From Escherichia phage YX22: 64,000 nucleotides of DNA. Positions 10,210 to 16,475 of this stretch are shown piece by piece. Every line of letters starts with the position of its first letter. Positions within the stretch are counted from its first letter, which is position 1. The translations under genes were made by a program, and so were the position numbers. Location of the stretch: sequence record OR776998. One strand, given 5' to 3'. A model generated the notes under the pieces. It did no database searches, was not told where the DNA came from, and saw only the letters and a program-made list of their open reading frames with translations.

Positions 10210-10659
10210 TCAGAAACGGGTGTCGCTGACCGTTCTGTATCGCACACCCTGAAACTGTTTAGCGAGTTTAACAAATTCCATCGCTGGCAAATCAACTTTG
10301 TAGACCTTCATGCGCTGTTTGCCGTCCATGTTCAACGCAGCGACAAATCGGTGAGAACCGTCAACAACGTAATTGTCAGAAGACACCCAAACTCGACCCA
10401 TAGGTTTCTTATTTCTGATCTGCTTCATGATCTTCCAGACCTTCATTTTATTGATTTCGTTCTGGGTAAGACGAAGCATTTTGATGGGCACTTGCACAGC
10501 ATCTATGGACACGCCGTTGTCTTCAAGATATTTGTGAAAATCTTCTTGTTTGTCGGCATCGATTTGTGGCATAGAAGAACGAGAAAGCCCGAGGTTCCCA
10601 ACAGGAATCCTCAGGCCGTTAATGATGTTCAACCAGTCAATAAAAGATGTAAGGAACAT
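10210..10659 (-). CDS. ParB-like nuclease (ParB/Srx N-terminal domain) protein
   Basis: 149 aa; VQVPIKMLRLTQNEIN...YVVDGSHRFVAA resembles the ParB N-terminal domain signature (DGxHR); GAGG 7 nt upstream of ATG. Confidence 0.45.
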   Translation of the reverse strand: MFLTSFIDWLNIINGLRIPVGNLGLSRSSMPQIDADKQEDFHKYLEDNGVSIDAVQVPIKMLRLTQNEINKMKVWKIMKQIRNKKPMGRVWVSSDNYVVDGSHRFVAALNMDGKQRMKVYKVDLPAMEFVKLAKQFQGVRYRTVSDTRF

Positions 10660-11569: not shown

Positions 11570-11809
11570 TTAACTGATGTGCTTCAGAAGAGCGAAGAGG
11601 ATCACAGCCTTGGCCTTTACCTTTCCTACGATGCCTGTCTCGACATCAACTTCTTCAGCAACCCAATCTTTTCCCTTCTTGCTGATGATAACGTCACGGC
11701 GCTGTGCGTAGACTTCTTTGGTCGCATACACACGACGGAACCCTTTAGCGCGGAGCAATCCCCAATTGCGATCAATCTCTACTGAAGTTTCGACCATTTT
11801 GTTCTTCAT
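11570..11809 (-). CDS. Hypothetical protein
   Basis: 79 aa ORF, ATG preceded by AGATTATATC. Confidence 0.4.
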   Translation of the reverse strand: MKNKMVETSVEIDRNWGLLRAKGFRRVYATKEVYAQRRDVIISKKGKDWVAEEVDVETGIVGKVKAKAVILFALLKHIS

Positions 11810-11890
11810 GATATAATCTTACCTTTCAACCCGGTGAACCCATCGTTCGCCAGTTATTGAATAATAGGACATTCCTTAGAGGAAGTAAAC

Positions 11891-11927
11891 CCCCTAAAAG
11901 TAAAAATCCCCAACGTTTTGTTGGGGA
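11891..11927 (-). terminator. Rho-independent terminator downstream of the ACP-like gene
   Basis: On the minus strand: stem TCCCCAAC/GTTGGGGA with 5-nt loop followed by TTTTTACTTTT. Confidence 0.6.
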
Positions 11928-11933
11928 CTTCTG

Positions 11934-12257
11934 TTATTTGCGCAGGGCAACCACGAGTTCAGCGAGTTCACCCATGGTCGGGTCATCACCTTTACTACCC
12001 AGCCAACCGTCGTCGATTTCGACCTGAAACTCTTCTTCTAGTTCCATTACGATTTCGATGGCATCCAGTTCGTCACCGCCGAGGTCTTTCTTGGTACGGA
12101 GGCCAGCCAGCTTGTCCAGGGCGTCCTCGTTCTGAGATGCCACGTCGTCCAGCAATTTGCGCTTGTCATCGTCACGCCACAGATCCAAGTTCAGATTGTC
12201 AGTGGCGTACTGAGCCAGATGACGCATGACTTCAACATATGTTGGTTTGCTGCTCAT
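11934..12257 (-). CDS. Acyl carrier protein-like protein with Ser-to-Glu substitution at the phosphopantetheine attachment site
   Basis: 107 aa; C-terminal 55 aa align with E. coli AcpP helix II: phage DLGGDELDAIEIVMELEEEFQVEIDD versus AcpP [26 protein letters not shown]. Codon checked by hand: gac gaa ctg gat = D E L D. SD GGGAGAAG 6 nt upstream of ATG. Confidence 0.65.
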   Translation of the reverse strand: MSSKPTYVEVMRHLAQYATDNLNLDLWRDDDKRKLLDDVASQNEDALDKLAGLRTKKDLGGDELDAIEIVMELEEEFQVEIDDGWLGSKGDDPTMGELAELVVALRK

Positions 12258-12299
12258 GCTACTTCTCCCAAAGAAAGGCGGGTTGCCCCGCCCGTTGGA

Positions 12300-14501
12300 T
12301 TATATTTTGATTTCTTTCTCTGTCAGTTCGGCAGTGACCTTGTACTTCACCCCATCCACTTCAACTTCCATGGTGGACTCTTCCAGGTCGAGGTCGGTGA
12401 ACCAGCCATGGCCAGCAACGATACCATACACCACTTTAGACAGTGTCTTGTTCAGGGCGCGGACTTCGGTGATGGCCGCCTTGGCAGCAGCGTCGATCCA
12501 GTTTTCGATCAGATGTTTCTGTAAGGATTCAGGCACGGCAGTGATCATAGGAGACTTCACGAATGCTTCGTACTCCTTCAGCGCATTGGCGATGAACAAG
12601 TCACCAGCATTGAGTTTCTTGTTCTCGGCAATCTTCTTCTGTACCGCTGCGATAGACGGTAGAGATGAAGCGCCAGCGATCTTCACGTTCAGCTCACGGC
12701 TCATGTAGAAGTCGGTAGACTCTTTGGTCTCAGTCTTCGGTGAGAAGCCGTAATCGCGGATGCCGTAGGAGGACAGGAACTCGGCCGCCTCAGCGCCGTA
12801 CTGTACTGCCAAGCCTTTGGCGTTACCCTTACCAACCAGGGCGTCTCGATAGAACTTCAGCACCTTCTGCTTGCCTTTCAGGGCTTCCAGACGGACATTA
12901 TCCGCAAAGAACTGAGCAGCACTGATGTTCTTGACCATGGCGCGGTTGACCAGCGGTACGCTTTCCAGGTTCAGGACAAACACTTCCGGACCACCAAACA
13001 CGTGGACACCCATTTCGATCAGCTTATGCACGACTTCGATATCAGCCTTGAACGGCAGAGTCTTCACGTTAATGATACCGTCTTTGACGATGGTGTAGTT
13101 GCGCCACTGGAAAGTATCCAGTTCTTCAGGCAGACCGAACTTCTTCTGTGCGAATTCAGGCACAGCCACAGTACCGTGTTGAATTGTACGCACACTGATG
13201 TTCGGGCGCTCGGAGTTATAGACCAAATCGCTGATTGGCACAACACCCAGGTCGTTGGTAGGTTCGAACGTCGGGTTCCACTCTTCGTGTTCTGCCAGCT
13301 TGAGAGCCAGTGCTTTACGCTCTTCTTTGGACTGAGCGTTCGCGATCTGTTCTGCCAGCTTGTCTTCGGTGTCGTCGGTTTTCTGCACAGTACCGCGCCC
13401 GATGCTCTTATAGGAGAACATCGGATGCTTGGTAGCAACAGGCACACCAGCTTCAGCCAGGTACGTCAGCACATCAACGACGGTGGTCGCATCTTCAGCC
13501 GGAACCAGGTCATAGTCAATACCGTCAACGCCGCGCAGCTGGTCGTCAACAATCGCCTGAACCAGATCGTTCTTGATGTTGGAGTAGTCCTGCTTGGTGA
13601 AGCAGTTGCTGTACTGTTTGATGAAGCGAACGTCGCCCGTTTTCTTCAGTGCAGCCCACACCAGGTCCGCGTCCATGATGTGTACGCCGTAGAACGCCAG
13701 CACGTATGCCGCCTGGATGTCCGCCAGCGCATCAAGCTGGTCGATCATGTTAGGGTTTACAACCCACAGCTTGGTGACGCTCTCAGGGATGCTCACATAG
13801 CCGACCGGGTGAGAGTCATCGTCCTGCACCGCCAGTACTGTTGCCACACCGTTTTCGACGTAGATGGCATGGGTGTAGATGACTGGGACATCAACTTTCA
13901 CCTTCGGCACTGATGACTTCAGCACGTTTTCCAGTTCGGTCTGGTATTCGGTCTGACCTTCAGCAAACACGTGGGTCGCACCGGAGCGCTCAGACATCAG
14001 AGCTAGCAGTTCGCGGTTACAGTACCAGCCATATTCGATAAATGTAATGTTATCGAAAGCAAATGGCAGGGTCTCAGCAACCAGTAGAATTTCGTTGGTA
14101 CGCCAGCAGTTGTCATACCCGTCAGTCATGAACGCCAGGTTGTTGACATAGCCAGGTTTCTTCAGGTCACGCGCAGTATCCATCGCCAGTTTCAATGGCT
14201 CAACGAAACCAGTACAGCCGGATGGTTGCAGGAAACGGTCGATCAGTTTGTTCAGCTCGCTCAGGTCAGACGCAGCACTAACCTGGCGGCCAGCGAACAC
14301 AGTACCAAAGTCGCCTTTGGAGGAGAAATACAGAACGCTCACAGTGTCTTCCGGCTTCACCAGGGATGGCAGGTTCTCCTTCAGGTGCTTGCGGACTTCA
14401 GGGAGCGCACGGTACATAGAGCCGGAAATGTCTACAACGATTACATGGTTGGACGGAGCAGCAGTCGCAACCGCATTCTTAAATTCTAATGATTCAATCA
14501 T
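12300..14501 (-). CDS. von Willebrand factor A (vWA/MIDAS) domain protein, 733 aa
   Basis: ATG at 14501 (MIESLEFKNAV...); N-terminal vWA signature VIVVDISGSM (DxSxS MIDAS), G/T-containing loop, FMTDGYDN; roughly 500 aa C-terminal region of unknown fold. Confidence 0.7.
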   Translation of the reverse strand: MIESLEFKNAVATAAPSNHVIVVDISGSMYRALPEVRKHLKENLPSLVKPEDTVSVLYFSSKGDFGTVFAGRQVSAASDLSELNKLIDRFLQPSGCTGFVEPLKLAMDTARDLKKPGYVNNLAFMTDGYDNCWRTNEILLVAETLPFAFDNITFIEYGWYCNRELLALMSERSGATHVFAEGQTEYQTELENVLKSSVPKVKVDVPVIYTHAIYVENGVATVLAVQDDDSHPVGYVSIPESVTKLWVVNPNMIDQLDALADIQAAYVLAFYGVHIMDADLVWAALKKTGDVRFIKQYSNCFTKQDYSNIKNDLVQAIVDDQLRGVDGIDYDLVPAEDATTVVDVLTYLAEAGVPVATKHPMFSYKSIGRGTVQKTDDTEDKLAEQIANAQSKEERKALALKLAEHEEWNPTFEPTNDLGVVPISDLVYNSERPNISVRTIQHGTVAVPEFAQKKFGLPEELDTFQWRNYTIVKDGIINVKTLPFKADIEVVHKLIEMGVHVFGGPEVFVLNLESVPLVNRAMVKNISAAQFFADNVRLEALKGKQKVLKFYRDALVGKGNAKGLAVQYGAEAAEFLSSYGIRDYGFSPKTETKESTDFYMSRELNVKIAGASSLPSIAAVQKKIAENKKLNAGDLFIANALKEYEAFVKSPMITAVPESLQKHLIENWIDAAAKAAITEVRALNKTLSKVVYGIVAGHGWFTDLDLEESTMEVEVDGVKYKVTAELTEKEIKI

Positions 14502-14709
14502 TGTTCTCTTCGCCTTGTGCGTAAGGGTTAAGTTCAGACTCATCAGCGGCTTCGATGCGCGTCTTTACAGAGTCCAGCATATTGTTGATAAACTCACGAG
14601 ACTGCTCCAGCTGAGCCAAGAGCACATCCTTTGGAGCATAGTTCTGAATGCAAGCCGGAATACTTTCAGACGTCGCCTTCAGGTCGGTAAAACATTCTTT
14701 CAGTATCAT
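14494..14709 (-). CDS. Hypothetical small acidic protein
   Basis: 71 aa ORF with ATG start; first gene of the three-gene cassette; its stop lies 2 nt before the vWA start. Confidence 0.4.
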   Translation of the reverse strand: MILKECFTDLKATSESIPACIQNYAPKDVLLAQLEQSREFINNMLDSVKTRIEAADESELNPYAQGEENND

Positions 14710-14810: not shown

Positions 14811-16475
14811 TCAGATTTGTGAGGCCAGTTCTGTCACCAGAGGAGCGGCACGAACACGCGCATCTTCCAGAGTTTGGGTGTTGAAGAACTCGCCATCACG
14901 ATACACCAATTGGTGCTGGTTGTCGGCGTCTTGCACCTGATCAAAAGTGATACCGTCAACCAACACTAGTTTACCCTGAGGGTCTTTAATGACTTTAAGG
15001 AAACCACGCGCAGACTTTTTAGTCCCGCCTTTATCGGTCTTCGGCTCTTTGAAGATCTCACGGAATTCACCGTTCACTTTACCAGCCGTGGCTTTCACTG
15101 CTGTGCCAGTACTGTCACGGGTGTTCATCTGGTAGGTGTAGGAACCGATACCGAACACCGCGTTGATGGAAGCGAAGTTCCGGTCAGCCAGACGGCTAAA
15201 GATCTGGTCTTCACGCGCCAGGGTGATAGAATCACCGTAGATCAGGCCGATGTGCTCATCCAACAGGAAGTGCCCAGTTTCAGTCTGGGTGCCACCAAAG
15301 ATCTCCCACAGGCGCTGGATAGAGCCGACCGCTTCTGAACGGCTGATGATATTACGGTCATCTGCCATCAGAGAGTTGATCGTGCCTTCGCCTGTGATCA
15401 GGTGATAGGTGTTCGTCTCTTCGATGTGGATAACTTCGGTGCTGCTAGACACGCCGCTGATGTTCAGCGTAGCGCGGTCTTTGAACCCCTCGATGCGGTA
15501 GCCGCCGACGATGTGTACAGGGTCGCCCGAGTCAGGGCGGATCACGACTTTACCATTGCGCGCCATGATAATGTCTTTCAGGCGAGGGAGATAGTCGTCG
15601 ATGACCTGCCAGTAATCCCACGCATCAGACACGATGCTGACGATGCCATCAGGATACACGTCCTGCACCAGGCGGCGGAAGGTTTCGAATTCACCATCCT
15701 TCGTGCCCATACACATCACGGCGTGTTCGGTAGCCGCAACAGAACCAGCAACGACATAATCTTCGTCGATGTCTGCGCCATAATACTCTTCTACGAAGTC
15801 CAGGGCAGGGTTGGTATCGGTGCCTTTGAAGAACACCAGATGACCGGAACCGGAAGACGCGGCATCATGCCACCCGCTCATACCACGAAAGGAGAAGTCG
15901 TGGCCTTGGTAGTCGATGAACCAATGGTCCGGTGATACTCCCGTAGCGAGGGCAGCTTTCACCATCAGTGCCTTGTAATGCAGAGCGATGGTGGCGTTCG
16001 TCATCGGCTTCCAGATCTCAGAGCTGAACACAGTCTCCAGATAGTTGGTCAACCAGTAGAACTCCGGCAGGGTATTGAACATCACATACACCGGAACGCC
16101 ATACGGGCACATGGTGCCTTCAGGCAGCGCACGGACTTCGATAGGCAGGTAGCCGAGGTCATGCAGGGCTTCAATATGCTCTGTGCCGACGCGGCCTGGA
16201 CCCAGGACTTTGTTCATGCGACGGGCATACTTCTTCAGCACCTTGTCCTTCGGGCGCTGGAAGAATGCTTCGTCAAACAGTTCGTGGAACCAGGTCATGA
16301 AGCCCTGGATGCCCCAGACCACCACGCCGTTCTTCGGCAGGTGAGAGTTGAACAGTTTGTTAGAGCGCGGAGTTCCGTTGGAGAACACCAGCTCACTGCC
16401 TTCAGGGAACTGATAGATGTGCCCCGATTTGTAGAAGTCGATCGCATGGATTGGGTCTAAGTGGCGCATGCTCAT
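14811..16475 (-). CDS. Nicotinamide phosphoribosyltransferase family protein (NadV/NAMPT-like; candidate Namat of a NAD+ reconstitution pathway)
   Basis: 554 aa with NAMPT-like length and conserved blocks (FKGTDT, GSYTYQ, GLIYGDSIT); ATG start overlaps the stop of the Prs-like gene (ATGA). Confidence 0.8.
   Translation of the reverse strand: MSMRHLDPIHAIDFYKSGHIYQFPEGSELVFSNGTPRSNKLFNSHLPKNGVVVWGIQGFMTWFHELFDEAFFQRPKDKVLKKYARRMNKVLGPGRVGTEHIEALHDLGYLPIEVRALPEGTMCPYGVPVYVMFNTLPEFYWLTNYLETVFSSEIWKPMTNATIALHYKALMVKAALATGVSPDHWFIDYQGHDFSFRGMSGWHDAASSGSGHLVFFKGTDTNPALDFVEEYYGADIDEDYVVAGSVAATEHAVMCMGTKDGEFETFRRLVQDVYPDGIVSIVSDAWDYWQVIDDYLPRLKDIIMARNGKVVIRPDSGDPVHIVGGYRIEGFKDRATLNISGVSSSTEVIHIEETNTYHLITGEGTINSLMADDRNIISRSEAVGSIQRLWEIFGGTQTETGHFLLDEHIGLIYGDSITLAREDQIFSRLADRNFASINAVFGIGSYTYQMNTRDSTGTAVKATAGKVNGEFREIFKEPKTDKGGTKKSARGFLKVIKDPQGKLVLVDGITFDQVQDADNQHQLVYRDGEFFNTQTLEDARVRAAPLVTELASQI

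Follow-up and report, generated by a model that had tools for sequence, protein, structure and literature searches.

The stretch of DNA analysed here, 64,000 nucleotides (nt) of Escherichia phage YX22 (record OR776998; 'the window'), carries on its minus strand, at positions 11934-12257, an open reading frame (ORF) for a protein of 107 amino acids (aa) that resembles the bacterial acyl carrier protein (ACP) and has an acidic residue in place of the serine that holds the phosphopantetheine cofactor. The ORF begins with ATG and ends with TAA at 11934-11936; a Shine-Dalgarno-like element, GGGAGAAG, can be read from the sequence at 12262-12269 (minus), 4 nt 5′ of the start codon. The protein, whose full sequence is MSSKPTYVEVMRHLAQYATDNLNLDLWRDDDKRKLLDDVASQNEDALDKLAGLRTKKDLGGDELDAIEIVMELEEEFQVEIDDGWLGSKGDDPTMGELAELVVALRK, has an isoelectric point (pI) of 4.26 and a net charge of -14, a strong acidity much as in Escherichia coli AcpP. 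Its gene lies among minus-strand genes for replication and nucleotide metabolism, in the order PRPP synthetase, NAMPT, a small ORF, a gene for a 747-aa vWA-domain protein, the ACP-like gene and then small ORFs. The source phage is an Agtrevirus-like member of the Ackermannviridae: its closest relative is Escherichia phage AV101 (97% identity), and relatives at about 90% identity carry the Agtrevirus classification.

A tblastn search found orthologues of the ACP-like protein in 271 records of phages, for the most part genomes of some 150-160 kb with hosts among Salmonella, Klebsiella, Escherichia, Dickeya, Shigella, Enterobacter and Serratia. The protein matches PHROG 4154 over its full length (E = 6.4e-57, residues 1-107 on positions 1-108 of the 108-position profile), and the label attached to the family in PHROGs, UniProt and the deposited genomes is 'acyl carrier protein'. 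A record named Enterococcus phage Efm 3-10 (OR844942.1, 111 kb) holds an Ackermannviridae-type ACP-like gene of 60% identity at 462-770; its host label or its assembly looks doubtful.

Profile searches and structure prediction indicate that the 107-aa protein is clearly homologous to bacterial ACP, with a predicted helical fold of the ACP type. It scores 26.0 bits against the Pfam PP-binding family (PF00550), for which the gathering threshold is 20.8. The match to TIGR00517 (E = 1.3e-8, 34.6 bits) falls far under the AcpP equivalog cut-off of 70.45, and the NF002149 equivalog cut-off is likewise missed (33 bits against 106). A phmmer search of the sequences in the PDB returned ACPs only and placed DLGGDELD of the phage protein on DLGADSLD of solved ACPs. 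When the family profile was aligned by hhalign with a profile of 20 genuine ACPs, residues 48-107 fell on ACP positions 25-81 with a probability of 99.4% (E = 1.2e-21); this region of statistically secure homology (11937-12116, minus) takes in the end of loop I, helix II, the helix III region and helix IV. AlphaFold2 (AF2), supplied with a 38-sequence alignment, predicts helices at residues 7-21, 30-40, 44-51, 55-59, 64-77 and 95-105, with a predicted local distance difference test score (pLDDT) of 76. Every leading Foldseek match in the PDB is an ACP, at probabilities of at most 0.97, target-normalised template-modelling (TM) scores of at most 0.72 and weak E-values of about 0.2. In a viral structure library the top match is the 'acyl carrier protein' of phage ViI (TM 0.85), with other phage ACPs next; the nearest viral structural neighbours after this orthologue are the PHROG 5934 'acyl carrier proteins' of phiCbK, Olleya phage Harreka_1 and jumbo phage HRDY3. 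An earlier, sequence-only reading of this DNA had called the protein ACP-like and had held that a prediction of some other fold would speak against it; the PF00550 score, the hhalign probability and the ACPs at the head of the PDB matches uphold the call, and the AF2 model is ACP-like.

The same reading had aligned part of the protein with helix II of E. coli AcpP, and this alignment is reproduced. Helix II, the 'recognition helix', and its flanks (residues 58-81, DLGGDELDAIEIVMELEEEFQVEI; 12015-12086, minus) are identical to AcpP at 16 of 24 positions, HMMER setting DLGGDELD on DLGADSLD of solved ACPs, and constitute the most conserved block of the family. The acidic contact residues of the helix are kept: D62, D65, E68, E74 and E75 of the phage protein correspond to D35, D38, E41, E47 and E48 of AcpP.

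Where AcpP has Ser36, which bears phosphopantetheine, the phage gene has the codon GAA for Glu63 (12069-12071, minus), which directly precedes helix II of the AF2 model (residues 64-77). The replacement of serine by glutamate had been noted before, with the codon checked by hand; the plus strand does read ttc there, and the alignments agree. A survey of about 70 orthologues, aligned or motif-scanned and reaching down to about 26% identity, found Glu or Asp at the serine site in every one and Ser never. Across 38 protein clusters (down to 56% identity) the residue is Glu in 36 and Asp in two; it is Asp in Kuttervirus-type loci that are 60-64% identical (DLGGDDLDM), and Glu or Asp in metagenomic relatives at 34-50% identity. 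The codons are GAA in 16 cases, GAT in eight, GAC in two and GAG in one. Because acidic residues without any Ser, written with all four acidic codons, run through the orthologues, a sequencing error or a one-off pseudo-variant, either of which had been named as a way in which the claim could fall, is excluded; the use of all four codons while Ser never appears also shows selection for an acidic side chain. As far as the alignments reach, the acidic residue at the serine site is thus a fixed, selected character of the family.

Two distant members add a time order. Erwinia phage vB_EamM-Bue1 (MG973030; locus L099, 6316-6615) has a 99-aa ACP-like ORF straight after its vWA gene, and Serratia phage 3M encodes a 90-aa ACP-like protein; both have Glu at the serine site. 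Since these two proteins are of canonical ACP length and already lack the serine, its loss predates the extra segment found in the core genera. The Bue1 ORF is missing from the gene calls of that assembly and represents an unannotated gene.

Phosphopantetheinyl transferases esterify a serine hydroxyl, so that neither Glu nor Asp should be loadable with phosphopantetheine. The proposal that the protein carries no prosthetic group therefore extends from a single genome to the family, in which the attachment serine is absent throughout and normal loading should be impossible. Could the protein still be a carrier, through unconventional chemistry or through another residue such as Glu63, the conserved Thr94 or Lys56? 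The databases annotate it as an acyl carrier protein, T94, K56 and R54 are invariant, and some relatives have an ADP-ribosyltransferase gene nearby. That gene is only sporadic, however, Thr94 matches the Thr with which ordinary ACPs usually cap the N-terminus of helix IV, and no transferase, synthetase or acyl-processing enzyme is conserved alongside. No fatty-acid, polyketide, non-ribosomal peptide synthetase or phosphopantetheinyl-transferase gene was found beside the ACP-like gene, nor did 50 kb of P46FS4, an annotated relative, contain one. A carrier of this kind is very improbable.

The pattern of conservation within the family has three foci: helix II (G60, G61, D62, L64, D65, I67, E68, M71 and E74-E76), a DDPT loop ahead of helix IV, and one face of an N-terminal helix. 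In all, 28 columns are invariant. The remainder of the protein changes rapidly. In divergent contigs the ACP-like protein is 34-50% identical, as against 70-79% for the adjacent vWA protein, 71-78% for orf79 and 76-85% for orf149; judged by these identities, divergence is much faster in the ACP-like gene than in the genes around it, helix II excepted. Fast divergence and the loss of the catalytic serine might suggest that an ACP gene, once captured, is decaying and has lost its function. This idea is effectively refuted by the conservation pattern: the ORF is intact and of constant length in about 270 genomes, with relatives down to about 26% identity, the 28 columns are held invariant, the acidic residue is maintained with all four codons, and the ribosome-binding site and the terminator are conserved.

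The neighbour orf149 (10210-10659, minus) is itself unusually conserved for the region, at 76-99% in every relative, the most divergent contigs among them, and matches only the middle (positions 316-467) of the 740-position profile phrog_2859.

Outside helix II, the architecture can be read in two ways. The sequence-only reading had credited the protein with a 50-aa N-terminal extension absent from ACPs; extra material does exist, but it amounts to only about 27-30 residues beyond an ACP domain of 77-80 aa. A conserved amphipathic N-terminal helix, seen in the AF2 model and in the conservation of Y7, V10, M11, L14, Y17, A18, N21 and L22, spans residues 7-21 (12195-12239, minus). Local HMMER alignments to several ACPs are ungapped and collinear from residue 30, and in an alignment that includes the short orthologues (A6) ACP helix I falls at residues 28-41. 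On this evidence, the amphipathic helix would sit in an N-terminal extension of 27 residues. A MAFFT alignment (A2) and the Foldseek alignments of about 100 columns disagree and take helix 7-21 as helix I, which suggests instead an insertion of about 29 residues in loop I behind it. Whether helix 7-21 is an additional 'helix 0' or helix I with an insertion behind it is thus ambiguous. The 90-99-aa orthologues of phages 3M and Bue1 lack this helix.

The loop ahead of helix IV is three residues longer than that of AcpP and contains the DDPT motif (residues 91-94; 11976-11987, minus), which is invariant in core Ackermannviridae. The motif also occurs in three short Glu-type relatives (P0052, P0055, P0056), and similar motifs are present in some Ser-containing ACPs (DDPT in P0065, DDMT in P0061, DDLT in P0058). 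Set against E. coli AcpP and type II ACPs in general, the phage protein shares the predicted helical fold, the 16 identities over 24 residues around helix II with the acidic residues at D35, D38, E41, E47 and E48, small size and very acidic character. It differs in having Glu or Asp for Ser36 throughout its family, some 27-30 extra residues including the conserved N-terminal helix, the longer DDPT loop, a sub-equivalog score and a gene context without fatty-acid genes.

Strong acidity invites a further explanation, in which the protein acts as a generic polyanion, either a nucleic-acid mimic and decoy of the anti-restriction type or a buffer of divalent cations, its ACP ancestry being incidental. 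T7 Ocr and gp5.9 are small, strongly acidic early-region proteins that occupy the binding site of a host protein, and they do so by mimicking DNA. A functional parallel would fit the net charge of -14 and pI of 4.26, the position of the gene in a replication and nucleotide-metabolism region, and its fast divergence, which is frequent in counter-defence proteins. Conservation is focused on the ACP recognition helix and the DDPT loop and not on overall charge, however, and the protein is small and monomer-sized. There is no homology to Ocr or gp5.9, and an ACP-like protein would mimic a protein cofactor-carrier, not DNA. PADLOC, whose library is one of defence and not anti-defence proteins, returned no match for the ACP-like protein or six of its neighbours. 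We regard a mere polyanion as improbable.

The most serious competing explanation lies immediately upstream. The 747-aa vWA-domain protein (12300-14543, minus) has a metal-ion-dependent adhesion site (MIDAS) motif, D38-x-S40-x-S42, and is a candidate partner; the ACP-like protein could belong to a phage protein, foremost this one, as its dedicated subunit or adaptor, with the ACP fold serving as a structural module. There are precedents for such use of the fold: mitochondrial ACP is a subunit of complex I and of the NFS1-ISD11 complex. In integrin I-domains a ligand Glu or Asp completes the coordination of the MIDAS metal, and one may speculate that an exposed Glu63 or Asp63 does the same for the vWA protein. 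The vWA gene stands directly 5′ of the ACP-like gene, some 40 nt away, in each of the 21 Ackermannviridae loci examined and in four divergent contigs from metagenomes; it is also directly 5′ in Bue1. The two genes co-occur nearly 1:1 (vWA at 60% identity or more in 269 phage records, ACP-like in about 270), and 50 vWA homologues all keep the MIDAS residues D38, S40 and S42. A phage partner would also account for the features that set the protein apart from the abundant host AcpP.

Other observations pull the two genes apart. Homologues of the vWA protein at 36-49% identity occur in Straboviridae (RB43, Miro, Phynn), Pseudomonas phage pf16 and Shewanella phage Thanatos-1, and no ACP-like ORF was found within 3.5-4 kb of the vWA gene in any of these five. 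In Serratia phage 3M three genes intervene between the two. The ACP-like protein evolves far faster than its neighbour (34-50% as against 70-79% identity), and a conserved terminator-like hairpin separates the genes. Synteny is high across the whole virus family, so that adjacency alone is weak evidence, and the model of the vWA protein (pLDDT 86) resembles only generic vWA and beta-sandwich proteins. An obligate partnership is weakened by the vWA homologues without an ACP-like ORF and by the difference in rate; a phage partner in the wider sense is retained as a rival, one that we consider possible though on balance unlikely.

The separating hairpin, GC-rich and followed by a U-run, lies at 12276-12293 (minus) and occupies the same position in relatives L001-L021, L083-L086 and L099. 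Its stem is kept by compensatory changes across relatives, as GGGCGGGG/CCCGCC, GCCGGGG/CCCGGC or GGGGGC/GCCCCC. It could be a leaky terminator or an element of RNA stability or processing, and expression of the vWA and ACP-like genes may therefore be uncoupled. In the window the two genes are in frame, with one TAA and 14 sense codons between them. Readthrough or fusion was considered and rejected: the length of the spacer is not a multiple of three in relatives, for instance 44 nt in L006. A sigma-70 promoter, CTGACA-16-TATAAT at 12326-12299 (11 of 12 positions matching), was likewise discarded, its TATAAT arising from an ATA-TAA codon pair found only in the window where relatives have ATCTAA.

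Downstream of the ACP-like gene, 6 nt past its stop codon, a second hairpin (tccccaac/gttgggga, followed by TTTTT; 11902-11927, minus) resembles an intrinsic terminator and is kept in most relatives. Just beyond it stands a promoter-like TTTACT-N17-TATTAT (11861-11889, minus) with a 'tttacttc' box kept in nearly all relatives; to judge from sequence alone, it is a candidate early promoter of the phage, serving orf79 (11570-11809), the gene that follows. The stretch 3′ of the ACP-like gene, up to orf131, is a variable slot in relatives (L002 6559-7065, L083 4029-4535, L093 26968-27423). It is filled by a Mod-like ADP-ribosyltransferase (PF26816) in some of them and by endonuclease V (DenV) in P46FS4, neither of which is present in the window. 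On the other side, the NAMPT gene (14811-16475, minus; Pfam NAPRTase, 1.3e-31) adjoins a ribose-phosphate pyrophosphokinase gene in relatives, and together they make up an NAD+ salvage pair. Pairs of this kind have been proposed to counter NAD-depleting defences.

Proteins of similar make-up occur elsewhere. A HMMER scan of 1.8 billion representative proteins gave 728 matches, of which only about ten had E < 1e-10. Among the best 150 of the 728, about 35 domains from outside the Ackermannviridae have Glu or Asp at the serine site and 130 have Ser, a proportion biased upward since the query profile favours Glu. Short Glu-type ACP-likes are present in unrelated phage-like contigs (L046 6986-7300; L096 6001-6297; L088 1825-2085), where they neighbour an AEP primase of TOTE type, ThyX/HNH genes or a CxxCxxCC protein. 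A 79-aa viral ACP-like family has Ala at the serine site (DLKGDALDA) and sits beside a MazG-domain gene in IMG/VR contigs (L040-L047, L050, L054, L055 and L060; e.g. L043 6923-7162). Neither a lipid-metabolism context nor a common partner gene was seen among the neighbours of the other Ser-less viral ACP-likes examined. By these loci, Ser-less ACP-likes with Glu, Asp or Ala recur in phages outside lipid contexts. Most ACP-like ORFs in the other viral contigs scanned keep Ser and may be real carriers, unlike the members of PHROG 4154, which never have it.

A cofactor-free ACP fold is also known from cellular life: the mitochondrial ribosomal protein mL50 (PF10501, in the same clan as PP-binding) is of this kind, and a literature search on it gave irrelevant matches only. 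The phage protein differs from mL50 in organism and context and has no detectable match to PF10501; one unrelated Asp-type metagenomic protein weakly touches that family.

Taken at face value, these features describe a protein that is probably a binding protein and not the carrier that the databases call it. Our preferred account, to which we assign a probability of roughly 0.4, is that of a non-carrier 'pseudo-ACP' that docks through its conserved recognition helix on an ACP-binding partner, slightly more probably one of the host than one of the phage. Such a protein would have kept the ACP fold and the recognition helix while permanently losing the serine for 4′-phosphopantetheine, and would shuttle no acyl groups. 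A mechanism of binding alone is suggested because the part that has been preserved is the one that recognises partners: the acidic helix II would dock on a partner's basic ACP-binding patch in a purely protein-protein interaction, and the pseudo-ACP, being unloaded, would act as a dead-end occupant or a regulator of the partner's ACP site. The invariant acidic side chain would be located where the cofactor phosphodiester would be, and one may speculate that Glu63 mimics the phosphate. The N-terminal helix and the DDPT loop would add affinity and specificity, setting the pseudo-ACP apart from the abundant host AcpP.

The sequence-only reading had called a mimic or decoy of host ACP plausible; as a hypothesis, this is favoured by the strong conservation of helix II and its acidic contact residues in an otherwise fast-changing protein, and by the response of at least one host partner, MukB, to apo-AcpP. 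If we were to speculate on the target, a host ACP client would rank slightly ahead of a phage protein, and MukB, which accepts apo-ACP, and AcpS serve as examples. The ATPase of MukB is stimulated equally by apo- and holo-AcpP (PMC8602292), and a cofactor-free ACP surface can therefore be functional. In functional terms, AcpP as a cofactor-independent subunit and non-carrier proteins with the ACP fold, such as mL50, are the closest known parallels. The action of AcpP on MukB in the MukBEF complex (PMC8602292) resembles what is proposed for the phage protein in that an ACP surface acts by binding alone; it differs in that genuine host AcpP is involved there, whereas client binding by the phage protein is a proposal only. 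In the case of AcpS, residues D35, E41 and E47/E48 of AcpP make ion pairs with the enzyme (bioRxiv 10.1101/2025.01.28.635281), and all of their counterparts, D62, E68, E74 and E75, are retained in the phage protein.

It is important to point out that several observations weigh against a host-directed pseudo-ACP. Host AcpP is present at about 100 uM (PMC8602292), so that a decoy acting by plain competition would have to be strongly expressed or bind with much higher affinity. The best phmmer match in the PDB is the ACP of Bacillus subtilis (29.8 bits), with E. coli AcpP far lower (24.9 bits); the phage protein is therefore no closer to enterobacterial AcpP than to ACPs generally, and shows no sign of host-specific mimicry. 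Glu and Asp suit the N-terminus of a helix, so that structure, rather than imitation of a phosphate, may explain the acidic preference; in one other viral family the serine site holds Ala. The AF2 model has only moderate confidence (pLDDT 76), the Foldseek E-values are weak (about 0.2), and the fixed position beside the vWA gene in core Ackermannviridae is equally compatible with a partner from the phage. A broader version of the pseudo-ACP reading is more tentative still: Ser-less ACP look-alikes would be a recurrent, hitherto unrecognised class of phage effectors. Posing as cofactor-bearing AcpP, with Glu or Asp in the place of the phosphodiester, they would enter the host ACP hub (e.g. MukBEF, AcpS, SpoT, IscS), and the Ackermannviridae protein would be the best-conserved case. 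We consider this doubtful.

Whatever its partner, the protein should not be classified among the acyl carrier proteins, because it fails both the serine test and the AcpP equivalog thresholds; in functional terms the label is almost certainly wrong. Literature searches on phage ACPs, serine-less ACPs and the ACPs and transcriptomes of Ackermannviridae and Kuttervirus found no paper on the missing serine; the gene is mentioned only as an entry in tables of annotations or proteomes, a virion preparation having yielded one peptide (PMC10892097). The label stands in hundreds of Ackermannviridae genomes, where it implies an auxiliary role in lipid metabolism, and is likely a systematic mis-annotation. 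If the pseudo-ACP does occupy the ACP site of a partner, it would be a phage factor of a new kind, for take-over or regulation, aimed at a highly connected bacterial hub, and would offer a ready-made probe for cofactor-independent ACP interactions. Since the Ackermannviridae (Kuttervirus, Agtrevirus, Limestonevirus and Taipeivirus) are common candidates for biocontrol and therapy, the function of a gene that is universally conserved among them also matters in practice.

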